A stretch of 54,388 bases of DNA from Catajapyx aquilonaris (lineage: Eukaryota): assembly GCA_000934665.2 (NCBI GenBank), contig KZ538679.1, positions 1-54,388 on the forward strand, given 5' to 3'. A model generated the notes under the pieces. The model had not been told where the DNA came from and searched no databases. It worked only from the letters and a program-made list of their open reading frames with translations. Positions 1-47,450 of the stretch are shown here, piece after piece (the first letter of the stretch is position 1; every line of letters begins with the position of its first letter). The translations under genes and the position numbers were made by a program.

Positions 1-173
1 GTCGCAGAAGAAAGGTTATATATACAGATCGAGCGTGCGTGTAACAAAAACAATGTGCCTACCCCTCTCCTGCCGCTTTACAGTAGTCCTCTAAAGAACC
101 CAACCTGCAAGAGACAAAAAGGAAAAAAAAACACACGTGGTATGAGTGCATACACAACAAAGAGGCCCCGTTC

Positions 174-476
174 TCAACAAATGCAAACAAACTCATATCC
201 GAGAGTGCTCCTAATTAAGTTCAGACGCAGTTTTGACTCCCCCAGACTGACTGACATGTGACACGAGAGTAGCGGTTTTGTCCCCAGCGGGAGGGTCCTT
301 CTCAGAGCTCCGGGGTCCTCCTTTCCCTCCAATCTCATCGCGGTAATGGAGAGAGCATTAGGAAGCGACGATGGGTGTCGACTCGTCGGCCTCCTCACCT
401 CCAGAAAACCAGTTAGGAGCACCGGATAATAGCGCCCAATGTCAGCACCCATGACCCCCCATTTCATTATGGGAGA
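174..476 (-). CDS. Possible terminal exon of the same gene (weak candidate)
   Basis: Pyrimidine-rich acceptor CTTCTCACCCTTCTGGTGCAG| at 477/476 is phase 0 and opens a 100-codon frame (SPIMKWGVMG...YEFVCIC*). No recognisable domain or clear tail anchor; the true exon may lie outside the window. Confidence 0.2.
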   Translation of the reverse strand, partial: SPIMKWGVMGADIGRYYPVLLTGFLEVRRPTSRHPSSLPNALSITAMRLEGKEDPGALRRTLPLGTKPLLSCHMSVSLGESKLRLNLIRSTLGYEFVCIC

Positions 477-1834
477 CTGCACCAGAAGGGTGAGAAGTCC
501 GTCTTTTCTTTACAACCTCTATTAAACGGCACCGCGCAGCGGCAGCCCCCAGGAAAAATCCGGGAAGGGGGGGAACTTTTCTTAATCTTGTTACCATCCA
601 AAATGTGCTCCGACTCTTGAAGCACCCGGATTCCCCATAAGGCCGACTCCCATTATTGTCTAACGAGGCGTTTTACGATAAATAATTTATCTGCCCATAA
701 ACCGTCCATCTGACTCACCTCTTCGGGACTGTCCATCGGAAGGCAGCCCACTGATCAACTCGTTAGCCCATAAGCACAGCAATAATGCAAGAGGCGGCGG
801 TGTCCGGTCAGCCCNGCCCCCCCCCCCCTCCCCTCCAAACCCTCGGGGAGCATAATTCATCAATAATGGGCGCCCGTACAGAAGTGTGTATTATAGGCAA
901 CAGTAATTCGCGGGAGTCGGTCCCGGGGAAGCTACCCAATCTCGACGGGGACGGCGGCGCGCACAAAAGAATTGCCCTCGGAATGGGTGTCATCACTTGC
1001 AGCCAATATACCTTTTTATTGCCCGCAGACTGGGCCATCGCCAGTATCGGGCCTACCGGATTCATCTCCTCCCTGGCACATTGATCACTTTGATTCCGGT
1101 TCGAGGACTCCCCCAATTTCCGCCAAAAACTCCATTAATTTTTTTTGTGTGTGTGTGTGTCGCACCGTGCACTATCTTAGCACCGGGGACTGGCCGTCCG
1201 TCACCCGGTAATCATCATTTGCATGCAAATCCATCACCTCCCCCCCGACTGATTAAATTTATGCACATGCCCGGCCAATGTTCCGCACTAAATATCCATG
1301 TACACTGACATGTGAACAAGACAAACTAGTTTGCGTCAACGTGTTATGACGCATGGTCCGCGCAATAAATCGGCGGGCCCAGATTACCTGCCGGTACTTG
1401 ACAAAAGGAGTCCTAGTGATTACGGTGGAAGTGACAGGCATCGTGTTTGTGTTATGTTGCGGAGACGGTCTCATTAGCGAAGAGCAGTGACACGTGCGGG
1501 ACGCCACTGCCAAAAAGGGTTGTCCCTCTGTCATACCCGGGGTTGAGAGCGAGAAGAAGAAAAAAAATAAAAATTGGTTCCTCCGAAGCCCCCGAGGCCT
1601 GCTAATTATGATCCCTAGCGCCCCCAGCCCAACCCAAGTCTCCCCCTATTGTTTCGCGGCTTGCAGTCGACGGGGGGTCCCAAGGAGTAATTGTCGTGCC
1701 CCGGGGGAGGAAACCTCTTTTGTTGGATGTCGTCGCCTTTGCCTCCGAGCCTCGGTGTCGCATCTCCTTTTGTCCGCGGATCGATTGGGGGAAATGAGGG
1801 GGCTGGTGGTTGCACACGCTGCATGCACACGTAC

Positions 1835-2256
1835 CTGCACGGCGAACCAGTCGGCAACACGTCGCAGGTCGCAGCCGACCATGGCCCACTCCTCTTGTGG
1901 CAGCGTCATTTGAACCGGGGCGGCGGGAGGGTCCGGGCTGGTAGATGGCAGCACGGTGCGGTGTTGGGGCTCGGCCTCAGGGCGAACTCGGACGGTGCTG
2001 CCGCCCGCCTCGGCCGCGGCCCTCAGTCGCACTTGCTCCAGGTGGTACAGCCGCAGCCTCAGCTCCTCCTCACCCACCTGTCGAGGTGCAGCATGGCCCG
2101 CCCTGGGGTCGGACCAGGGGCAGGTGGTCACCTCCTCGGGCTCCGCCAACTGGTGGTGCTGCACCGGCGGCGAGGGGAAAGTAGCGCTCTGTACCAGGTC
2201 CGGGAGTGGCAACGGGCCTCGACGTCGACGTCGTCGCCGCCGACGTGGCGCCGCTA
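1835..2256 (-). CDS. Coding exon B: poly-Arg, Pro/Ala-rich linker and C-terminal BH3-like motif (candidate BH3-only module)
   Basis: GC-rich stretch within the longest ORF of the window (1646..2344). Encodes AAPRRRRRRRRRGPLPLPDLVQ...MTLPQEEWAMVGCDLRRVADWFAVQ and ends at donor GTGCAG|GTACGT (phase 0). LRRVADWF fits the BH3 core L-x-x-x-[GA]-D-x-F. Confidence 0.72.
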
Positions 2257-2805
2257 CTGTAACGACACCGCAAGACATATTTAGCCAACAGTCCATTTTT
2301 TTTGTTCCCGACTGTACCGCCCCGCCAAAAACAAACCGTAACAATATCCGATCTCACAAGGGTCCGTTTCTTTTCCCCCCATGTTGCCCNCCCCCCCTCC
2401 AGTTTCTTCCCCCTCTGGGTGAAGGGTCTGGTGCCCCTGTTATCTGGCGATGAGCAGGTTCAAAACAATACTGGTGCCCCCGGGGCAACCCCCACAGCTG
2501 CTGCCTGGAGAAGGTCAAGGAGGTGCATCCAGGCAGCAGACTTCTCATATTTTTATTTTTTTTTGTACACATCATGCAACGCAATCCCACTCGTAATAAA
2601 CAGACTGATTACGCGCTGTCAACCTCGTCTGAAATGACTTAATAAACGCGCGCTCAATTTGCCCTGGGCCGCATCCCACGCAAGACCCCCGGATGATTAG
2701 TCACATGGTTGGCAGTTACGCTACCGGTGTACAGTATTTAATTGTGTGGCCCGGTGTGGCCGTACAACAAACTTTGGCGCCCAGCTGATTTCCCCGCCTG
2801 AAGAC

Positions 2806-2845
2806 ACACAAGTCGAAACATGTTTGTCCTTGGCCCGACTTGTAC
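2806..2845. promoter_or_regulatory. Candidate p53-family response element: four contiguous decamer half-sites
   Basis: ACACAAGTCG AAACATGTTT GTCCTTGGCC CGACTTGTAC. All four keep the CWWG core at exact 10-bp spacing with zero spacer, and the second is a perfect RRRCWWGYYY. Confidence 0.6.
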
Positions 2846-3049
2846 ATTTGGGAGGCGCCACGTTGAACCCCCGCCACTCGCACGACCTTGAGAGTAAGTT
2901 GGGGCCCACGCACATCTAGTTACCCCGGTAGTTGTTGCATCAGACCACAGCTGTGCGAGAGTAACGACCTGACGAGGTCGCTGACTCACAGTGCAGGTGC
3001 ATCGCGGCCTTGACACCCTGCCTATAACTAGGTCACTTTACGCGCACTG

Positions 3050-3062
3050 AGGTCACTGACAC
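3050..3062. promoter_or_regulatory. Candidate ecdysone/nuclear-receptor IR1 element
   Basis: AGGTCA-C-TGACAC (imperfect IR1), with another AGGTCA at 3030-3035; lies just inside the intron next to the donor. Confidence 0.3.
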
Positions 3063-3072
3063 CGGTACTTAC

Positions 3073-3349
3073 CCACAGCTCGTCTCCGATGTAGTATCGC
3101 CCTGGCCAGCTCATACAATATGTCCCGCCAGTTGTCCCTCAAAAAGCGGCATATGACCTGCAGCAAATCATGCACCGGCACCACGTTGTCTTCTTCCGGA
3201 TATATGGGCACGGCGCCGGCCACGCCGATCACCAGCTGTACCGACACCATACCTCCAGTCAGTAGGCCGCACCACAGCCGAATGAACCACTCTGCTCTGT
3301 GTTTCCAAACTACAAGTCCAAGCAGGCCGCCTCGTGCTGTGGCCTGCAT
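3073..3349 (-). CDS. Coding exon A of a candidate pro-apoptotic gene: hydrophobic leader, internal IBM-like AVPIYPEE and amphipathic helices (alternative ATG at 3250)
   Basis: Open frame from ATG 3349 (in-frame TGA at 3386-3388 upstream): MQATARGGLLGLVVWKHRAEWFIRLWCGLLTGGMVSVQLVIGVAG-AVPIYPEEDNVVPVHDLLQVICRFLRDNWRDILYELARAILHRRRAV. It ends at a perfect donor GTGG|GTAAGT (intron starts 3072), phase 1, matching the phase of the acceptor at 2256. Confidence 0.6.
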
Positions 3350-3600
3350 CACCCATGGCCCTGTACTGAGCAACACTCCAGCCAATCACAGCACAGGATG
3401 ACGGGGCCTCGCAGCATGTGCTGCTCCATGTGTTTTGTAAACATACGTGGTGGGGGTTGCTAGGGAGGGAGATGACCTCCAGTGGTTAAAAAAGTAACCG
3501 GGCGCCAAACACTTTTCGGACCCGTTCGCGCGCCCGACTCGTTCCCGCCGGCGGGAAAAACACCCCCACCACACCCCAGCAGGTTGGGACATGCCACGTG
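3280..3600 (-). promoter_or_regulatory. Putative proximal promoter of the candidate apoptosis gene
   Basis: Inr-like TCATTC (3285-3280) and TCAGTA (3369-3364); CCAAT box AGCCAATCA 3380-3388; FOXO-type TGTAAACA 3436-3443; E2F-type GGCGCCAAA 3501-3509; palindromic TTCCCGCCGGCGGGAA 3542-3557; CpG-rich. Confidence 0.5.
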
Positions 3601-6600
3601 CGCGTACTGTCTTGCAGCATACCTACGACAGGTGTAATCCGATATTGATTCGCATAGATGACAAAACGTCTATGACATTATATTGATCCGCATACCGCAT
3701 ACATGTCGTATGAGGCTTATCGCATTCCACATGCTGGCTGAGTAGAAAGCCTGGCGCCGTTTGTGATATGAAAAGGAAAATAAAAAATAAGCAGATACTG
3801 GTAATCAATTACGCAGCACTTTTTGATGTAAGCATCTTACTGAAATAGCCTGCAAGAATAGGCAAGATCAGGAGGTCAAAGGTTCGATACGCGTTTGATG
3901 GTTCGATTCGCTAATTATAATAATTAAAATGTATAATTTGACACTCATTCACAGATGGGGAAAACACTACCGGTGAATCAACACTACACTTATTTGCATA
4001 TGAACCGTACTTCCAGGAACCTGACAATTGGAGCGGTATGGCCTGATACATCACCAAAAACATCCCCCTTTAAAAAAAAACCGTGACATACGACTCCTCG
4101 CACTTTCCCAACACCCTGATGAACCTAATGAGCACCGTCCATCAGAAGCCCCAAAATGGACCTCAATCCATCACACCCCATGAACAATAGGGACCAGAAA
4201 GACACGTTAACCCAACTCTAATTTATTTTCCCGCCTTATCCTACATAACCCAGTTATTATAGTCCAACTAGGATTGTATATATCTCCCCCCTCCCCCTTC
4301 CCTCCCTCCTATTTCCTAGATAAATGTCTTTTTGATGCGGTGACTTCCCGATCTGGCCACCACCACTATCTGTTGAGTCTTATTAAAAGGAGATACAAGA
4401 GGGACCTCCCTTTGACTGGTCCAAATCCGGGCGAGATGCTAATTACCCTAGGGGTGTAATTGTACGGAGGGCGACTAGGGAGCATCATTTAGCATCCAGC
4501 CTAGGTAATGAGATATGGCGGATAAAGTCTTCGGGGTTCTAAAGCCAGATGAATGAATAAAAGGTCTCGATTCGCACCCCATGCTTTCGTCTTCTACACT
4601 TTTTTTAAAGGAAAAAAAAATAGATGAGGGGGTTGGAACAGGATGATCTTGCCCAATCAGCCAAGTACAATGTAGGTATTAAAGAGGGTGGTAATTAGCT
4701 GGGAGTAATTAGAAAGAGAGATGATTCCATGGCTACTTCAAGGGGATTTGACGCTTTTCAGTAGGAAGAATGGTGAAGGGTGTGGGGATTGGCGGGTAGT
4801 GTGTCAATCTTTCATTAAGTTCAATAGTCATAAGCAGTGTAATTAATATGGCTACTGGGTCAGGTTCATGATGTCATTTTTTATCCATGGCCTATCAGTC
4901 ATTATCATGACCTGCCATGACCGTTTGTTGCACCTATTGACGCACTATGTGGCATAATGCACATGATAAAAAGTGATGAGTCGACCTTTTGACGCATGTC
5001 GCGACTGCACTTACGGATGACAATATCAATGGCCATCAGCAACGGTTCACGGCTACGGGGCGTTGTATTTTGGGAGCATTTTGAAAAGCTGTACAATCGT
5101 CTAGACCAGGAGACGTCTTTTGAGACTGACCCGAGGGGATTTCTGCCTCCTTTCATCACATTTTGAGTGGTTGTCAATATTGACGTACAGGGGCACCTAA
5201 GTACAGGTACGAGGTCAAGTGCTTGGACAAACTAACCTTGTTGCTACCTCTTGCATAATTCTATATAGCAGATCGATATAGCATGACTTCGATGTCATTT
5301 ACAACGGCTATAGGCTAATCTGGATATTTGATCATTAATCTAAGGTATAATCTTGACGCCTCCTCGTAACCCTTACTCTATTTTGCAAGTATATCCGCCC
5401 GAGTTCCATAATAATTTATGTTGTAGGTTTATGCATATTGACATCAAAACATCACATACGCCCCCCTTCACTAAACCTGCGCAAACATCATGCATGATTG
5501 AGATTCTGAGAAACGATCAGTCTAAATGATATTGAGTTCCAACCTGTGGCAGCATTCTTTTCAGATGTTTCACATGGAGAGCTCCCCCTGACTCGAAAAT
5601 TACTCTATACCTGGGAAGGTGTGACTCACCTTGTATGAATCACTGTCTACTACCCTGGAAGTGTTTGTGTAGCGGAATCCCAACTCATAATTGTGTCCAA
5701 ATGCATGCGACACACAATTTGCGAAATGGAATCGGTCTCATTTTTCACCTGTCCATCGTCAGAGTGTGTCTTAATCTCCCTAATCTTCCAAGAAGGTCCC
5801 GTAAGATCTGGAAGAACCATTTTTCATCCGTCTGCTACCAAGCCACGCATCCTATTACAATCCAAACTAATCAATCCTCCAGATTTGCACTCAACCGGCA
5901 GGTTTATGTAAGATATCTAGTAGATAGCGTGTAGCCTTTCCAGCCTTAAAAAAAAAACAACAACAACGGGAACAAAAGCCCGGTAGCCATCTAGCCATCC
6001 CCATCAACACATTAATTTTACGAGGCACTAAAGTAATGAAAGCTGCTTTTCCAGTGTTGCTACTAGGCAACACTGGATGATACTCGTATTTGGTCTTCTA
6101 AGAAATGACCAGGTCCAGGTACACACTTGTTGCTAAGGGGGGATTGAAAAGCTGAAGGAACGGACACTTGCTACCTAGTATACAAGGGACTGACCTCTGG
6201 GCCACCTGGGCCAAACAGCCTCGGGGGATACGGCACCGTAGGAACCCACCCCTCTTCAATTCCCTAAAGGCTTTTGTGGGTGAGTCATGCCCCGGTAAAG
6301 CAGGTGAGGGAGGGTCAACGGTCAGTCCAACAGTATTTACCACACAGGTGTGTCGAAATTCTGTTTTAAAAAATTGTATTCCAGATTTGTTACATAATGT
6401 CCACTTTTGAAAGTCAAGGTGTGTCAATACCTGTATTTACGCCATAAAGTGGTTTTTAATCAGAAAAAATATGGCTTTTCAAGGTCCTGCAAACAACAAA
6501 CTAGGAAGTTTGGTAAGGAGTGAGTCAGTCATGAAAGTCACGACCATGGCCACGAATTGTGAACGACCTGAGTATACTGTTTGGTCACTGAAGAAGGTGG

Positions 6601-7626: not shown

Positions 7627-7693
<67 letters not shown>

Positions 7694-7695
7694 TA
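7627..7695. repeat. (TAT)n microsatellite
   Basis: About 20 TAT units; the source of the poly-I and poly-N artefact ORFs. Confidence 0.95.
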
Positions 7696-21500: not shown

Positions 21501-24500
21501 TATATTCCAGTAGTACATAATATTGATCTAAATGAAGTATAAATATTATTTAGGCACAAAAAGTGTAGCATATGCAAAGCAACTTTCGAGGACAGTGCTT
21601 GACTCAGCTAGTAACTAATAAACTGCTCTAATACACGGCGTTCATTAACCGGCTTATCAGTTATGGCCAGAAAAATAGTGTCTCTGACGATGGCGGCTGG
21701 TTTTGGACGTTTCCTCGTGACCTCAATTTATTTTGACCTCTGAAACAAAAAGCGTCCTTGTTTTATCAGCGTGGTTTTCCTCTGGAGACCCGGCAAACGG
21801 CGTCAAAGGTCAGCGCACAGTAAACAGTCAGAAGTCAAAGCCAGACAACAAACCCATTAAAAGTGGGTGGGAAAACTATCTCTCCCAAGTGCGCGGTCAA
21901 GATTTAATTGCAGAGTTAGGTACCATTTTCAATATCTGTCGGTCACTGGCCCAATCAAGGGTCAGAATTTTCCCTCGTATTTTTTAAATTATTGCGTTCT
22001 AATTGGACGGCGGTAAATATCCCGTTGCCAGCGGTACTGTAAACAAACTTTTATCGAAAAGGGGTGCGTAATCTGAAACCCCGACTTCTGGATAGGTTAC
22101 ACTTGTGTTTTCGTTGATGCTGCAGCTTATCAGTTATCTTATCTCGAACTGGGAAAAGCACCTCCACTTAAGTTTTGAAGAAAAAAAAAATGTTGGTTTA
22201 TATATAGCCGAGTTTCGTCATCATTGTTGTCATCTGGTTTTCACTCCTTCACGTAACCCTGCAAGTACATATCTTTACATCAATGATTGAACATCTGCTT
22301 GTGTAATATGAGCAGTGTATATGCCTGCGATAGGGGTTCATACAGTTCGCCTTCACATCACTTTCAAGGCTCTTCCTTCATCACAACCATCTCTACCTAT
22401 CAGCTTCCAAGCAGTTTGACCAGCTGCAGATGTATGCTGCTAAACACCCCTATAGTTTACACATGCTTGTTTATGAGAACAAAACGCTACCAAGATCGAT
22501 ACCATGTATTGTCCTACTTCAGGAACCTATGACCCTGTGACATCCCCCATTATTGCTTCTGCAATTGCTATTTTTTGTCCCAACATCAGTTCACTCCTAC
22601 AAGAACAATATGACTCACGACGACCACCGTAGAGACGAGTCGATTTTGTGGGACGGACAATACGTTGTTATGCAAGAGAAACACGAGAGGACGTCGTCGG
22701 TGGCTGCGACCCCCGCCGACACAAAAGGCTTCCATGCCCAGCATGCAAATAAACCTACCGCCTGCCAGTCAGCCCTCCACGTGGGAAAATGTGCTAAAAT
22801 ACAGGGCACGATGTCAGGGTGGGCCAAAGAGCCTTTCGATACGCTGGGTGGACCCCTTCATCGAATTATCCGCGCCTGCACCCAGATTGACGCATGTCAT
22901 CTCCGCTCATTTACCTATCTCAACAACTCAATATTTTGCGTTCAAAAAATTCCTACATTCTATGGAAAAAAAAATGATGATTCATATGGCTATAATTGCA
23001 GCGTTGTATACCATGGCTAAATGGATACTTGTGTGGTAGCAGTGAAAACCGCACTAATGAGCAGGGTAAAAAAAAGTGATGGGGGTGCAAAAAGCGTGTG
23101 AATGAGGACTCATTACTGGGTGGATCATGACGAGCTAACAGGAGATGGGCGGCTAGAAAGGATTTTTCGGAAGAAAGTGTGAAGAGGTTGGATGCCTAAT
23201 GAGCGGAGGAAACGGTTCTGGAATGCAAATGAGCCTCTTGTCGCTTGGATGCTGCCACCAACAAGTACTTCAGACTAAATGCGACTGATGCAGCGGGTCG
23301 CTTTGACTAGGAAGATGATGTCTAAAGCTCGATTTTGTGACTCCTAGAATTTGCTCAATTATGGCTGGTTTCTTCCAGTTTGGATAATGAAACGTGCTTC
23401 AAGAATTTGAGGAAATCGTGGTGCAACCTTGCATCATGGTGAATCATCGTCAGTCTGCTTTTTTAGTGTAACATACGGAGGCGACTCATCATCAGGTGAC
23501 TTGGTGGATTACCTAATCACTTTTTTTATTCTGCATTAAATGTCTCCCATCAGCTGAGGTCTGACCTCGAGAGGTCGACTCATCCAATAATACACAAGTT
23601 GACTGTTTATATAGCCATCTCCGAGGCCGTCTCACGACTCTCCTCCAAGTCCACCCATGCCATCTACCAACAAGCTTCTTACTATAGCAATGGTTCCCAA
23701 CCTGGGGGTCGCGCACCACTGTACTAAAGCCTAAGGAGGGTCAATTTGATATAATTTCGATTTCAGACCGACATGACTGCAGCCGGATTCGACAGCCATC
23801 TTAGTGGCCACTCTCTTGAAGAGCTTTTTTTCCCCTGAAGTGTCCTCTAACCCTGATGGCTAAGGGCGCATCATCCGTCAGGTGAGATGGTTCACAAGAG
23901 GTCATTTCTTTCTAATTGGTGTTTTGTGTTTGGAGGGGCGCCTTGTGAGAAACAGCCTGAAGCTACGACCATCTTGAGTGGCAGATCGATGCTGCTTCTC
24001 GCCTAATTTTTCCCATCTCTTCTGGTAGGCGCCATTGCAACAAGTGGCGCTGGCCAATTCGGGATGGCGTGCTGGCTGCAAGATTGCATCCTCTCCAAGC
24101 TTTTCTAGCTCCAAAAAGCGGGGGTGGCTATGGTAGGAAGAGGGGGTGAGAAACCTGTTGGTGACGCGGGTAGGCCCGGGCTTTCTATCCGGATTTTTTT
24201 TATATTTATACTACGATGGTGCAGCAGGAGTCTGCTGACTGGTAACGCTGCAGGCGGTCCTGGGTGGTTGACCCACAGAATAAAACAATGCAAGGCAGAG
24301 CAAATGATCCTTCCACTTCGTTTGGACTCAAGGGCCCTCGAAGGTAGTCAGCCAGAATTGTGGTGGTACCATTGATTTAATCAAATGTTGCAAGGGATCT
24401 CCACCCTGCCCTGAAGGTGCTGATCTTTTGCTTGCTCAAGACTCCTTTGTTGACCTTTGTTCGCCCGAAAGACCAAAGGACAGATCCCAAAGATGTTGCT

Positions 24501-26565
24501 GAACCAGGAAGGAAACTTGCTCACCACAGCACAAACTGTTTCCATAATATGTTGAAACTTACCAATCCATTAAGACAGGTACACCACTTGACATGTCACG
24601 GCAGTTTTCAGGTGGTGCTGGAGTTGGGTTGTTGAATTTGCATAAAGCTGTAGGCCGGGTGGGTTTAGGGTCCTTGGGGAGGCTTCCAGGCGGGGGTGGA
24701 CTGGTGCAGCCTGAGGGCATAGGCTGGAATCATAGCCCCCACGAAAAGAGCGGGAAGAGACGTGTTGTGGAAGAGGGGAAAGTAGTCAGGGTGCTGGGGG
24801 TGGTGGTAGGGGTTCCAGCTAGAAGAAAAGCTGGTCGGCAGGGGGGATGGAACTAGCTGCCATAGGGTGGTGGGGTGGACGAGGGTTGTTGGGCTCAGCT
24901 GAGCATCTGGGCTGAATCCGAAGTTCTGGTCCGACAAGTCGTACACGGTAGCTGCTAACCCAGTGACGTACTAGACGCATCATCATACGATACAATGTTT
25001 CATAACATATAGCTATACGTACCAACCACCATATTGCGCAGTACACACCGGTACAGTAATATCAGAATCTTCATTTAAAAATTGAGTACATTTTGAATCC
25101 ATTTTGAACTTGCGGCATTGAACTCCCTGGTATCGTTGATTCAGACGCGGCCCAGCAGCTGAGAGTACGCCTGTGTTACAAGAAGTGGAGGATTGGTTGG
25201 GATTATGGCTGGTAGTAGGTTCCGGGGTGGAGGTGGACTGGGAGGTGGGGAGACACGTAACGTTTCTGGGTCGCCTGGGGGGCTGAGTCCAGATTTAGCA
25301 CGCACTTGTCCCTCCAGATCAGTTCCCCGGGCAGAGGCAGCAACCAGAGAAGAGGAGGTTGGAGTGGGGGCGAGTGGGTGGGTGAGGACAACACCCCCTG
25401 GCCCCCTTGCACACCCATCCTATCCTCCTAGGTCTCAGGTGGCTGCCTTACGGGTTGTTGCTTTTTTCCCTCCTCTTTTTTGCCCTTTCTTCTTTTTTGA
25501 CCACGATGGTAGTAAGGGGGAACCCAAACAGTGTGGTACTGGGGGGGAAGAGAGAGGGGAGCAGGAGGGGTTGCCCAACTTCAAGGCCAGTTGGAGGTGG
25601 TGACCTCGGGTGGGGCAGGGAGGGTTGTTTGGGTCCATCATCATCATCCCTCTCTGGAAGTCATCTCCACTCCGATTGGTCACCACCTCTGGAAGCAACT
25701 CACCTGCAGAATTAAATTAATCCGAGCTATGCCCAGGCCAGAACCCGATCTGACTCTTGCTTCATTATCCGCGCAATGTATCATTATGCCGATTACATGT
25801 TACACATCTCTTCAACCTGAGCGTCATCCAGTTTTCTGGACACGGTCGGCCATGAACTCCCGGAGCTGAGGGACATTGTATTTTGACAGAGACCAGACCT
25901 ATTGACACAATGTCAAACGCAGAAAGATAAACAGGCTGGAGGCCAGAATTACCAACAGAAAAGGAGGTTAGAAGTACAGGGTACACACTCACATGAGAGA
26001 GAAGCTGGGTAATGAGTAGACTCAATATTGCAAGCGTTGTAATTAGAAAGAGGGCCAAAAAGGCGACCTGAATTAATGATGGAGGGAGGCCCAAACGCCC
26101 CAGGGATCTTCCTTCACTTGTCAACCTTCAGCAGCGCCAATTACTTGCCGTTGCCTGAATGCGTGTGTTTGTTCGCAGGTTGTGAACACACCTTCTGGCT
26201 AACCTTTCTGCATGGCTCAAGCCCTTTGGGATCCCATCACTTTTATACTTTCCCACCGCTTCTCTCTAATAAGCCGTCACCCGGGGAAGGGTGGGGGCGG
26301 AGGTTCAACTTCCAGACTTTTTCTTTTCACTCTCTTTTGACATACGGGACTGTTCACGAAAGCTAATGCAAATATTGGGACAAGAGCTTGCCGATGTGAT
26401 CGCTGACTTATATTCGGTGCCTAATTTGCCCCCCAACCTGCCCTAGGTTCAAGAACCCGAAACCATTTCATCCACCTGTGCATGTCACCCAGAGAGTGTT
26501 CATGAACAACTAAACAGCAGGGTGTTAAAAATGAACCAAACAGCAAGGTGATAAGAATTAACCAA

Positions 26566-43324: not shown

Positions 43325-43864
43325 TAGTGTGAATTTTCCGAGTCACAAGCCACTTCGGATATAGTAGACCTTCTTAAGGCACACTTCGGATATAATAGAC
43401 CAGAGTCCCACGTCAGATGATTCCAAACGTTATTTTAACCTTTACGTTGATTTCACGTCAAACTATCGTCTCAATGGTACTTTATAATTGATATTAAGGA
43501 GGTTGGCCCAGCATTGCCTTTCAACCTCCAAGGATAGGGAAGGAAGGAAGTGGCTGTGGCCTATTATACGGAAGCGACCCCGGAATTATCCTAGAAAGAC
43601 CGTGGAAAACCACAGAAAACCACGGTCAGGGTTGCCGGCCCCGGGATTCGAACCCAGGACCTCCCGATTAGCAGTAGGACGCCCTATCCACTATGCCAAC
43701 CTGCTTCGGTCGTCTCAATGGCACTGTACAATAGTCGTTACACTTCTTCAGTGACGTGAAAGGTGAAATTGATGTTAAAAGTTGTTAAAATAACGTCAGA
43801 GATCATCTGGCGTGGGACTCTCTACTATATCCAAAGTGGCTTGGGACTACGAAAATTCACACTA
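43325..43864. mobile_element. Fold-back MITE interrupted centrally by a SINE
   Basis: TAGTGTGAATTTTC..AAGCCACTT.GGATATAGTAGA..GAGTCCCACG.CAGATGAT mirrored by ATCATCTGGCGTGGGACTCTCTACTATATCCAAAGTGGCTT..GAAAATTCACACTA. Confidence 0.85.
43482..43711 (-). mobile_element. tRNA-derived SINE family 1 with intact 5' end and TSD
   Basis: 5' GACCGAAGCAGGTTGGCATAGTGG (A box) ... GGGTTCGAATCCC (B box); TSD GTCTCAATGG(Y)ACT at 43468 and 43712. Confidence 0.9.
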
Positions 43865-45935: not shown

Positions 45936-47183
45936 TTCGAATCTGGTTAAAATTATTTACAATATAATAATATTACGCTGGGTGCATGCCTGCATGTTTT
46001 CATACATGTTGAATTTTCAACGTGGATTACGCACATTGTTGTCGCTTAGTTTTTTGGGGGGTAAAAAGCTAGTAGCATGCGGTTTGCTTTTAAAATTTGC
46101 AGACATTCCATTTTGTGCGCAGTAATTCGATTTTCTGGCGAGCTGAATGGGGTTATAAACTCCATTCCCCTCCTGTGAAGAAGAGGGAGAAAAACTGCGA
46201 CTAGCGTAGAATTTCACTCGTGTTGGCAAATTTTCTCCCCAGGAAATTTAGCTTTTTAAAAACAGCCACAAAGGAGCGTTAATGGAGAGAGAATAAATAC
46301 ATTATATGGCTTTAAAAAAATGGCTTTCTTCCCTCGAGCACCCAAAATTGCATTTAAGCCATTGTCATTTCAGATCTCTTCCTCTCTTAACACTAGAAGG
46401 TTCGTAACAGATGGCAAACTTACTGTGACGCCATTATTTTTCTTCTTCTCAAATTTCATTCAAACTCTAACTTTCATCTGTTTCTAATCTGACTATTAAA
46501 TCCTAAGAATCGATCCAAAAGCCACTTCCAGCTGACGTTTTGTAACTCTTGTATTATTGTGGGGACCATCCAAAAAGATAAATCGCACTTAAAGCCAAAA
46601 CCCTTTGATGAATTCCGCATTGAAAGTAAGGGGGGAGGGAGTTACCTAAATGAGCGCAAAAGACAAATGACGGTCGTGATCCAGATCTTTTCCCCCGAAT
46701 CATTAAGTGACGGAGTTCATGTGGGTTGAAAAGGTGCAAATGGGGATTTACGCGCCTGCAGGCGAGGGTTGGGGAATTAATGGCCAATCTCAGCATAAGT
46801 CATTCCCTCCCCCCCTTGTTCCTCCTCCAACTCACCCCCCCCCCCTCTATACCCGAGGACTATAATCGCCTGGAGGCATATCTGCGACACGCGATTACGG
46901 CCATTAGACCTTCAAAGGATGCGTCCAAATGATATTTGTCTCCTGCTTTGTTTCAGAGCCCCGAGGAGGATTCCCGCAGTCACAGAAAGGGTTACTGGAC
47001 TGATTAGACCAGACCTAAATGACTCGGAGCCAAGATGCAGCTATCACAAATTTTTACGTCTCTTCTAATCTAATTGTGTGAATAAAAATCTAATTAGGAA
47101 AGAAAAACCAGTTCGGGAGGTAATAGACCGCGATATTATCTGCAGATAACATAGATTTGCATTGGGACGAACTGTTTGGTCTG

Positions 47184-47450
47184 GACCGAAGCAGGTTGGT
47201 GTAGGGGATAAGGAGCCCGCCTGCTAATCGGGAGGTCCTGGGTTCGAATCCCGGGGCCGGCGACCCGGACCATGGTTTTCTGTGGTTTTCCATGGTCTCC
47301 CCCAGGACAATTCCGGGGTCGTTTCCGTAAAAATAGGCCACAGCCACTTCCTTCCCTATCCCTAGTCCCATCCAATGGTGGTAATCCACCCCCCTAAGGG
47401 AGCCAAAGGCTCTACCACGGGGTATGATAAATAAATAAAATAAATAAATA
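47184..47450 (+). mobile_element. Full-length tRNA-derived SINE family 1 with (TAAA)n tail and 14-bp TSD
   Basis: GACCGAAGCAGGTTGGTGTAGGGG...GGGTTCGAATCCC; tail ATAAATAAATAAAATAAATAAAT; TSD AACTGTTTGGTCTG at 47170-47183 and 47451-47464. Confidence 0.93.

Follow-up and report, generated by a model that had tools for sequence, protein, structure and literature searches.

On balance, we favor the reading that the locus holds an unannotated, spliced gene for a BH3-only protein, pro-apoptotic and of the PUMA/Bmf/Bim kind, with a putative BH3 motif closest to that of PUMA (BBC3). In the window (the whole stretch of 54,388 nucleotides analyzed), two open reading frames (ORFs) on the minus strand join in frame at splice signals, a codon-position periodicity in GC content ends at these signals, and the second exon closes with a PUMA-type motif. 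A spliced BH3-only protein that promotes apoptosis is most likely what the locus encodes, and it is probably a divergent member of this known class that carries an odd hydrophobic N-terminal exon.

Proposed splice join, gene model and coding signal

One minus-strand ORF covers 3053..3385, with 110 codons from stop to stop, and the other covers 1646..2353, with 235 codons. With a slash marking the splice point, the donor of exon A reads GTG G/GTAAGT (last exon base 3073, phase 1) and the acceptor of exon B reads TTACAG/TA (first exon base 2256), with CTAAAT as a branch-like site in intron 1; the 3' end of exon B reads CAG/GTACGT at 1835, in phase 0. Joining 3349..3073, which begins at the in-frame ATG of exon A (3349..3347), to 2256..1835 by script gave 699 nt, or 233 codons, without a stop. 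This is the in-frame join that the initial annotation had proposed, and the layout described there for a product of at least 233 amino acids was recovered in the same order, with AVPI at residues 46–49, nine arginines (R9) at 97–105 and LRRVAD at 223–228. The elements of the gene model are the following:

3073..3349, minus strand: exon A, 92 codons and the first base of a split codon
2257..3072, minus strand: intron 1, 816 nt, GTAAGT...CTAAAT...TTACAG, with flat codon-position GC
1835..2256, minus strand: exon B, the rest of the split codon followed by 140 full ones
399..476, minus strand: candidate exon C, of 26 codons, with both ends in phase 0 and the donor GTGAGG; putative
78..104, minus strand: candidate exon D, 8 codons and TAA, behind the region's best polypyrimidine/AG site; putative

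We ranked splice sites with a rough splice matrix over 242 GT sites and 200 acceptor sites. The donors at 399, 1835 and 3073 came second, fourth and fifth, and the acceptors at 104, 476 and 2256 came first, third and twelfth, the last of these being only mediocre. Exons A, B, C and D agree in phase at all three junctions and the frame closes with a stop; use of these sites is predicted. The most likely gene model has four coding exons (3349..3073, 2256..1835, 476..399 and 104..78, minus strand) and 267 residues, with candidate exons C and D placed from splice signals only; its last 17 residues are hydrophobic (KD 1.43). Reading exon C through its donor to a stop at 177 is less likely because 398..177 is aperiodic (GC by codon position 0.50/0.53/0.58).

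The length of these ORFs does not by itself exceed chance: both strands of the CpG-rich stretch 1–4000 carry ORFs that overlap. Exon A has codon-position GC values of 0.66/0.41/0.64 and exon B of 0.80/0.57/0.76; both introns and the upstream sequence are flat (0.51–0.56). For GC codon asymmetry, the exon A ORF ranked first among the 95 ORFs of at least 90 amino acids in the window (0.20 vs. a mean of 0.008, SD 0.065), and its codons 1–46 are periodic when taken alone (0.70/0.50/0.63), as are the first 70 codons of exon B (0.80/0.60/0.74). Directly upstream of the acceptor at 2256, GC content drops from 0.71 with periodicity to a flat 0.44–0.48, and past the donor at 1835 the periodicity is gone. 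Exons A and B look coding, with the GC periodicity ending at the proposed splice sites; taken by itself, exon A is probably coding.

The proposed BH3 motif and its nearest look-alikes

From its N-terminal side, exon B contains the R9 tract at 2245..2219, a stretch rich in Pro, a helix predicted with confidence and, at 1879..1844 on the minus strand, the BH3 core VGCDLRRVADWF; a phase-0 intron follows ten residues past the BH3 Leu. The core fits the pattern that defines BH3 motifs on an amphipathic helix, hydrophobic-x3-Leu-x2-hydrophobic-[Gly/Ala/Ser]-Asp-x-hydrophobic. We compared the six-frame translation of the window with 40 block shuffles and found loose BH3 patterns twice where 1.35 were expected, the strict form LRR[IVLM][GAS]D once where 0.15 were expected, and the strict form with a W 5–8 residues before it once in the window and in none of the 40 shuffles. 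AlphaFold2 placed a helix on exon B residues 120–139, which correspond to the BH3 motif, at low confidence (pLDDT about 48–58). Across exon B, pLDDT was below 50 in 47 of the 140 residues and between 50 and 70 in a further 64; the exon is predicted to be largely disordered, a trait of BH3-only proteins.

Searched against 177,635 distinct PDB sequences, the last 40 residues of exon B matched exactly two at E ≤10, and both were BH3 peptides of PUMA/BBC3 (2vof_B and 2roc_B), identical to exon B in 10 of 19 aligned columns at E values of 1.1 and 1.3, which are not significant. In the ESM Atlas (recognition 2340), the matches listed for exon B were all BH3-bearing or BH3-like chordate clusters. The top one among them was a Bmf cluster (0.90, with 199 shared features), and the list also included Bim, a cluster in which 11% of members carry PUMA, Bak and PXT1; scores of 0.9 are reached by 4–10 in 100 shuffled proteins. 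Among the same matches, Bmf clusters ranked above the PUMA-bearing one. A comparison by eye of the exon B motif with zebrafish BH3 peptides (from PMC6148235) over 18 positions gave fewer shared positions than the two PDB peptides, with 6 for Bim, 6 for Bad, 4 for Puma and 4 for Bmf. The earlier proposal of a BH3-like motif at the end of exon B is supported by LRRVAD itself, by the two PUMA peptides and by the Bmf, Bim and PUMA clusters.

The profile and word-based searches yielded no significant relative. Pfam gave no family at E ≤10 for exon A, exon B or the extended exon B ORF, with the models of PUMA (PF15826), BMF (PF15185) and Bim included, and neither exon has a Bcl-2 family domain at that threshold. 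HMMER found no match to exon B at E ≤0.001 among 1.84 billion representatives, and whole exon B matched nothing in the PDB. Word-based searches yielded 259 candidates of near length for exon B (none at E ≤0.01), 2 of near length for exon A (none accepted) and 100 longer proteins for exon A (none accepted). Exon A had no usable match in the ESM Atlas (1570), and its PDB matches at E ≤10 were a proteasome beta subunit (E 0.14) and CDC4 (E 0.83), both insignificant and judged to be chance, with no Smac/DIABLO chain among them. A metagenome scan with exon B gave 595 pattern matches and one locus, L001, with 57% agreement over 28 Pro-rich residues; it was judged spurious, as it sits next to genes for membrane complexes in a bacterial contig of high GC content. 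The window has 168 ORFs that reach 75 amino acids, and the 145 starting at 4211 or later were scanned against Pfam, the other 23 lying in 1–3622; none of the 145 reached the cut-off as a recognizable neighbor gene, and one had a subthreshold match (PF04673, 19 bits vs. 24.4).

The locus could be no gene at all, with chance ORFs in a CpG island and a BH3-like motif that also arose by chance. Such a reading would sit well with the lack of a homologue in the Pfam, word-based, HMMER and whole-exon PDB searches, with the many overlapping ORFs on both strands of this GC-rich region, with the count of loose BH3 patterns and with the rest of the window, where the ORFs scanned gave no recognizable gene. 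We nevertheless regard it as improbable: it leaves the restriction of periodicity to the proposed exons to coincidence, and likewise the top-ranked splice sites that stay in phase over three junctions, the PUMA-type motif whose upstream W was not reproduced by any shuffle, the PUMA peptides as sole PDB matches to the exon B end and the listed Atlas neighbors, BH3-bearing or BH3-like throughout.

BH3-only genes are overlooked by annotation and BLAST surveys because they are short, disordered and fast-evolving. According to an evolutionary survey (PMC8998228), hagfish and lamprey apparently lack BH3-only genes and Puma makes its first appearance in gar; an axolotl study (PMC6124574) reports no Puma in axolotl and almost none in Xenopus. 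If the favored reading of a BH3-only gene is right, a divergent PUMA-like gene unseen by profile and database searches can be found from its motif, exon structure and promoter, and in a source lineage thought to lack PUMA the candidate would fill a gap.

Start codon, exon A and the AVPI tetrapeptide

Three elements bear on where translation of exon A may start:

3354..3356, minus strand: out-of-frame ATG (gccATGg, a strong context) that lies upstream of the proposed start by 7 nt; 62-codon frame with its stop inside exon A
3248..3250, minus strand: alternative start at Met34, an in-frame ATG within exon A that has the strong context ggaggtATGg
3382..3386, plus strand: CCAAT box, which reads ATTGG on the gene strand and lies upstream of ATG 3349 by 33 nt

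CCAAT boxes have a usual distance from the transcription start, and with this one only 33 nt upstream of ATG 3349, transcription may start downstream of that ATG. Exon A could be wholly or largely a 5' leader, with a later start (e.g., at Met34, ATG 3250) or with its frame serving as an upstream ORF, and the protein would have no hydrophobic leader. This reading also draws on the out-of-frame ATG 3356, which is met first and has a better context than ATG 3349, on the strong context of ATG 3250, on the failure of the ESM Atlas to recognize exon A and on human PUMA, described in PMC8197724 as having noncoding first exons and three coding exons. We find it rather doubtful, however, since exon B is periodic throughout and yet has its first in-frame ATG only at residue 117 of 140, so that an upstream phase-1 coding exon is needed, and exon A supplies one. 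The exon A periodicity, the strongest among the 95 ORFs, extends to codons 1–46, and a start at the in-frame ATG 2295 (MDCWLN...) was rejected on account of the AT-richer, aperiodic sequence in which it sits upstream of the acceptor (0.48/0.44/0.44).

Read from ATG 3349, the predicted product of exon A has a basic N-terminal part, a hydrophobic stretch at residues 29–47, AVPI at 46–49 (3214..3203) and then two predicted amphipathic helices. The initial annotation had taken AVPI as an IAP-binding motif (IBM) and the locus as a candidate hybrid that joins it to a BH3-like motif. The tetrapeptide fits the IBM pattern Ala-(Val/Thr/Ile)-(Pro/Ala)-(Phe/Tyr/Ile/Val), but it lies inside the ORF, and an IBM works only as a free N-terminus. 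The hybrid reading accordingly has the 45-residue leader import the protein into mitochondria and be cut off before Ala46, exposing AVPI, so that one polypeptide would antagonize IAPs and engage Bcl-2 proteins through its BH3 motif. Cleavage after residue 45 is conjecture. Several features suit it: the leader before AVPI has 4 basic residues, 1 acidic residue and a transmembrane-like stretch (KD19 1.88 at 29–47); V at –3 and G at –1 would fit a signal-peptidase-type site; the layout would resemble that of the Smac/DIABLO precursor; AlphaFold2, at low confidence, ended the leader helix at residue 46 and modeled AVPIYPEEDNVV as a loop; and by our own estimate from residue frequencies, an exact AVPI in a 92-residue exon is expected about once in a thousand.

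Over the window, on the other hand, AVPI occurs at the chance rate (one in the six-frame translation vs. 0.83 ± 0.97 expected from 40 block shuffles), as do looser IBM-like tetrapeptides (30 observed vs. 28.2 expected). AVPI is itself hydrophobic, which raises its odds above the average where a hydrophobic segment ends. Neither the word-based searches nor the ESM Atlas produced a relative of exon A, and a proteasome subunit and CDC4, not Smac/DIABLO, were its sole PDB matches at E ≤10. The start codon is uncertain as well, and the two activities would call for opposite topologies: a protein imported into the intermembrane space would keep its BH3 motif out of reach of the cytosol-facing targets until the outer membrane is permeabilized. 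We consider the hybrid killer very improbable. The claim of an IAP-binding motif is not supported, given the internal position and chance frequency of AVPI and the missing Smac/DIABLO match of exon A; AVPI is most likely the mere end of the hydrophobic segment; exon A probably adds a lineage-specific hydrophobic N-terminal segment to the BH3-only protein.

Nor is the architecture without precedent, as Reaper and Grim already join an IBM with a GH3 helix, the latter described in PMC3101595 and PMC3091752 as required for mitochondrial localization and killing. If the hybrid were nonetheless right, its logic would match that of Reaper and Grim, in which one small protein carries an IBM at its N-terminus and, apart from it, an amphipathic death helix (PMC3101595; PMC3091752). 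It would differ in that the IBM of Reaper, Hid and Grim stands directly at the N-terminus, whereas that of the candidate lies behind a long leader, and in that PMC3101595 and PMC3091752 describe GH3 as acting in mitochondrial localization and in association with itself or with Hid rather than in binding to the Bcl-2 groove. With Smac/DIABLO the candidate would share AVPI after a leader of about 45 residues with a basic start and a hydrophobic stretch, but the PDB search of exon A showed no similarity to any Smac chain, and a BH3-only protein follows instead of the Smac helical bundle. A distant prospect is that a BH3-only protein of vertebrate type gained a cleavable mitochondrial leader like that of Smac, with a mature protein starting at AVPI; one gene, induced by stress, would then yield both an IAP antagonist and a BH3 ligand resembling PUMA. 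The two arms of the mitochondrial death pathway would in that case be naturally fused, in convergence with insect Reaper and Grim and their IBM-plus-GH3 design. For a BH3-only protein, the hydrophobic N-terminal exon would be unusual, and cleavage before AVPI would place IAP and Bcl-2 antagonism in one molecule.

Regulatory motifs and comparison with BH3-only families

Upstream of exon A and in intron 1, we found motifs of three kinds:

3502..3558, minus strand: two E2F-like sites in the promoter stretch, TTTGGCGC at 3502–3509 and TTTCCCGC at 3551–3558
3437..3443, minus strand: FOXO-like core TGTTTAC (gene strand), one of 15 such cores in the window
2806..2835, strand not assigned: p53-like element within intron 1, made up of a perfect half-site with an imperfect one on either side

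The p53-like element has two mismatches, and nowhere else in the window does a zero-spacer full site stay within that limit; by chance, 1.35 such sites are expected per window, and 69 of 100 shuffles contained at least one. The E2F-like pattern TTTSSCGC occurs seven times in the window, the promoter pair included, against 5.43 expected, and 27 of 100 shuffles reached seven. The FOXO-like core is uninformative alone, given its 14 other copies. The earlier suggestion that these motifs fit a stress-inducible gene therefore holds as far as their presence in the promoter and intron 1 goes, while the p53 and E2F counts do not rise above those of shuffled sequence. PUMA is reported to be induced by p53, p73, E2F1 and FOXO3a (PMC3032554), and its regulators are described as binding around exon 1 and intron 1 (PMC8197724). 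By analogy, the placement of the E2F-, FOXO- and p53-like motifs would fit PUMA-type regulation. Judging from the family, stress would switch the gene on from its CpG-rich promoter with E2F-, FOXO- and p53-like sites, and the largely disordered protein would be kept at mitochondria by its hydrophobic end.

The comparison with PUMA/BBC3 takes in motif, exon structure and predicted fold. The exon B motif and the mouse PUMA peptide have the core EEW-A...G..LRR-[IV]-AD in common; the BH3 motif stands at the very end of its exon, and a short hydrophobic C-terminal part comes after it, predicted for the candidate from the putative exons C and D and described for PUMA as a hydrophobic mitochondrial signal (PMC8197724). 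A GC-rich first exon and an intron 1 with p53-like and E2F-like sites also recall PUMA (PMC8197724), and outside the helices the candidate protein has a mostly low-confidence, disorder-like prediction. Unlike PUMA, it goes unmatched by the Pfam PUMA model, and its W and L stand closer together by one residue. Its first exon, moreover, is apparently coding and hydrophobic, whereas mammalian exon 1a is noncoding; mammalian PUMA is described as having a noncoding first exon and three coding exons (PMC8197724), against the four coding exons of the candidate model, C-terminal ones putative. The R9 tract is a further difference.

Bmf and Bim form the other close comparison. The candidate lacks a match to their Pfam models (BMF, PF15185; Bclx_interact, PF08945), the PDB BH3 peptides of Bmf and Bim were not matched at E ≤10 whereas those of PUMA were, and the T-Q-T dynein-light-chain motif does not occur in the translated exons. 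Their clusters are nevertheless the nearest to exon B among the ESM Atlas matches listed (0.90, 0.87, 0.86 and 0.83), and the candidate resembles Bmf and Bim in size, in disorder and in a BH3 motif near the C-terminus that is followed by a hydrophobic end.

Proposed exon structure of the minus-strand locus

The proposed gene combines two open frames of the minus strand (exons A and B), and two further candidate exons lie downstream. The initial annotation's description of the open frames, their in-frame join and the encoded motifs was re-derived by a scripted join and was right in every checkable detail.

3053..3385, minus strand: open frame from the ORF listing of the window, containing exon A (3349..3073)
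1646..2353, minus strand: open frame from the same listing, containing exon B (2256..1835)
476..399, minus strand: candidate exon C, 26 codons starting SPIMKWGVMG, donor GTGAGG; acceptor ranked 3 of 200, donor 2 of 242
104..78, minus strand: candidate exon D, VGFFRGLL followed by a stop; acceptor ranked 1 of 200

Exon A begins with an in-frame ATG at 3349 and continues for 92 codons up to its donor (GTG G followed by GTAAGT; final exon base 3073, phase 1). The acceptor of exon B (TTACAG followed by TA) sets the first exon base at 2256, with a branch-like CTAAAT ∼27 nt upstream, and the exon ends at 1835 with CAG followed by GTACGT, in phase 0. Joining 3349..3073 to 2256..1835 gave 699 nt, or 233 codons, with zero stops; AVPI occupies residues 46–49, nine arginines residues 97–105, and LRRVAD residues 223–228.

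A GC-rich island (GC 0.54 versus 0.34–0.52 elsewhere) crowded with overlapping ORFs spans the window's first 4 kb, and ORF length is therefore no proof of exons. GC at the three codon positions was 0.66/0.41/0.64 for exon A and 0.80/0.57/0.76 for exon B but flat (0.51–0.56) in both introns and upstream of the gene, and the asymmetry of the exon A ORF was the largest among the window's 95 ORFs of 90 aa or longer (0.20; mean 0.008, SD 0.065). The signal changes at the proposed splice boundaries, falling to 0.48/0.44/0.44 in the 32 codons of the exon B frame just upstream of its acceptor and to 0.65/0.63/0.52 in the 62 codons beyond the donor at 1835, which favors real exons. Using a rough splice matrix, we ranked the 242 GT and 200 AG sites on the minus strand of positions 1–3700: the donors at 3073 and 1835 were fifth and fourth and the acceptor at 2256 was 12th. 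Codon-position GC, its switch at the boundaries, and the splice-site ranks are thus three internal lines in favor of the exons. Moreover, exon B allows no translation start before its 117th codon yet is periodic throughout, and a phase-1 upstream coding exon is therefore needed; exon A supplies one.

Downstream of 1835, we found six pyrimidine-rich AG sites, the two strongest of which keep the frame in phase 0. The resulting four-exon model has 267 residues, the last 17 of them hydrophobic (KD 1.43). Three junctions with top-ranked sites all agreeing in phase are unlikely to arise by chance, phase agreement alone having an estimated probability of 1 in 27. It is possible that exon C reads through its donor to a stop at 177, but the stretch so added is aperiodic. 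Splicing, conservation, orthology, and all functional properties of the locus are inferred.

A strong GT site lies within exon B (last exon base 2078, minus strand, rank 3 of 242) and two good AG sites within intron 1 (2504 and 2797, minus strand, ranks 2 and 4 of 200); they could give rise to alternative isoforms, which are known for mammalian PUMA (PMC8197724). The window contains 30 N characters, some within G homopolymer runs (e.g., at about 2390 and 814), which suggests that some base calls of the assembly are uncertain; the proposed exons are free of N characters.

The probable BH3 region of exon B

Exon B as a whole matched no Pfam family at E up to 10, no significant relative in a word-based homolog search, none of 1.84 billion representatives with HMMER, and no PDB chain; Pfam membership tests for the PUMA, Bmf, and Bim families were alike negative. 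Surveys are known to miss BH3-only genes (PMC8998228; PMC6124574), and such a lack of relatives is therefore weak evidence against the gene. A PDB search with the last 40 residues alone (E up to 10) matched exactly 2 of 177,635 distinct sequences, both of them BH3 peptides of PUMA (Bcl-2-binding component 3; 2vof_B and 2roc_B), with E values of 1.1 and 1.3 that are not significant alone. The alignment pairs qeewam.vgcdlrrvadwf with EEEWAReIGAQLRRIADDL, and the PDB also contains numerous Bim, Bad, Bmf, Bid, and Noxa peptides, none of which matched under the same threshold. Zebrafish BH3 peptides, taken from PMC6148235 and compared by eye over 18 columns, share fewer positions with the window's BH3 than the PDB PUMA peptides do (Bim 6, Bad 6, Puma 4, and Bmf 4). 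Across all six translated frames of the window, we counted one instance of the PUMA-type pattern LRR[IVLM][GAS]D (0.15 expected), and its combination with an upstream W, present here, was seen in none of 40 shuffles.

In the ESM Atlas, exon B had a recognition of 2340, the level of known families, and its nearest clusters among the matches listed were BH3-bearing or BH3-like chordate proteins. They included Bmf clusters at 0.90, 0.87, and 0.86, a further Bmf cluster at 0.83 in which 11% of members carry the PUMA family, and clusters of Bak, Bim, and PXT1. These neighbors agree with the PDB matches to PUMA but, because 4–10 in 100 shuffled proteins reach 0.9, they are a lead and not proof. Our conclusion is that exon B codes for a BH3-only protein of the PUMA/Bmf/Bim kind, its BH3 being closest to that of PUMA.

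AlphaFold2 without an alignment modeled most of exon B at low confidence (mean pLDDT 59.5), with a helix across the BH3 (residues 120–139, pLDDT about 48–58). Confidence was high for a single element, an Arg/Leu-rich amphipathic helix, EEELRLRLYHLEQVRLRAAAE (exon B residues 62–82, window 2011–2071, minus strand, pLDDT 93–96), which lies well upstream of the BH3.

The proposed N-terminal exon and the putative regulatory motifs

The N-terminal part of exon A is basic (four K/R and one D/E in 45 residues) and includes a transmembrane-like stretch, LLTGGMVSVQLVIGVAGAV (KD19 1.88), followed by AVPIYPEEDN and a strongly amphipathic region (hydrophobic moment 1.9); AlphaFold2 placed helices at residues 7–46, 59–72, and 74–88 (mean pLDDT 61). 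The initial annotation had read AVPI as an IAP-binding motif (IBM) on a polypeptide also carrying the BH3. For a 92-residue exon, an exact AVPI closing a leader would be expected roughly once in a thousand, the layout resembles the Smac precursor, and V at –3 and G at –1 suit a signal-peptidase-type cut. Across the six-frame translation of the window, however, AVPI occurs at the chance rate (1 versus 0.83 expected), as do looser IBM-like tetrapeptides (30 versus 28.2). An IBM functions only as a free N terminus, whereas this AVPI is internal and would need a conjectural cut after Gly45. Exon A had no relative in word-based and ESM Atlas searches, and a PDB search with an E limit of 10 returned no Smac chain for it. 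Its start codon is also insecure: a stronger, out-of-frame ATG opens a 62-codon frame at 3356, 7 nt upstream, a CCAAT box lies just 33 nt upstream of the ATG at 3349, and Met34 (ATG 3250) has a strong start context. Finally, if the IBM were exposed in the intermembrane space, the BH3 would be kept from the cytosol-facing pro-survival Bcl-2 proteins until after permeabilization. We thus consider a dual IBM/BH3 killer very improbable, and AVPI most likely does not act as an IAP-binding motif.

Nor would such an architecture be undescribed: Reaper and Grim are reported to pair an N-terminal IBM with a GH3 helix required for mitochondrial localization and killing (PMC3101595), and silkworm Reaper is described likewise (PMC3091752). 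A natural protein with both an IBM and a BH3 was not described in the titles and abstract openings of the literature matches listed. Human PUMA reportedly has two noncoding first exons and three coding exons, and its protein carries a BH3 and, at the C terminus, a hydrophobic mitochondrial signal (PMC8197724); the coding first exon here is a real difference from mammalian PUMA if the gene model is right.

Motif scans placed the following elements around the first exon.

3502–3509, gene strand: E2F-like site TTTGGCGC, just upstream of the gene
3551–3558, gene strand: E2F-like site TTTCCCGC, just upstream of the gene
2773: third E2F-like site, in intron 1
3437–3443: FOXO-like core
2806–2835: p53-like element with one perfect half-site, in intron 1

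PUMA is reportedly induced by p53, p73, E2F1, and FOXO3a (PMC3032554), with regulators acting at exon 1 and intron 1 (PMC8197724), and the motifs are placed accordingly. The motifs claimed earlier do exist, but they add little statistically: a single zero-spacer p53 full site with at most two mismatches occurs in the 54 kb, against 1.35 expected and at least one in 69 of 100 shuffles, and E2F-like octamers number 7 in the window against 5.4 expected. Of the hybrid death gene, the BH3-only, PUMA-like part with a stress-type promoter is supported but the dual killing function is not. The locus is probably a new, divergent BH3-only PUMA-like gene with an unusual hydrophobic N-terminal exon.

The remainder of the window

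The ∼50 kb upstream of the gene (4200–54388) contained no recognizable coding sequence, none of its 145 ORFs of 75 aa or longer reaching the Pfam cutoff, which suggests a gene-poor part of a large genome. A second GC-rich stretch at 24001–26000 (GC 0.52, GC skew +0.13) has several overlapping ORFs of 80–146 aa, none with a Pfam match, and may be another CpG-island promoter or the start of a noncoding RNA. ARAGORN detected two 72-nt tRNA-Ser(GCT)-like sequences, within 43480–43760 (minus strand) and 47135–47415 (plus strand), of which only the former met the Rfam tRNA threshold, at exactly 29 bits. Each forms the head of one of two copies of a single tRNA-derived SINE-like repeat; these copies align well over roughly 170 nt, about 100 nt of this beyond the tRNA part, with a mean column identity of 78% across the entire 327-column alignment. 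A (TTA)23 microsatellite at 7627–7695 gives rise to poly-Ile and poly-Asn ORFs.
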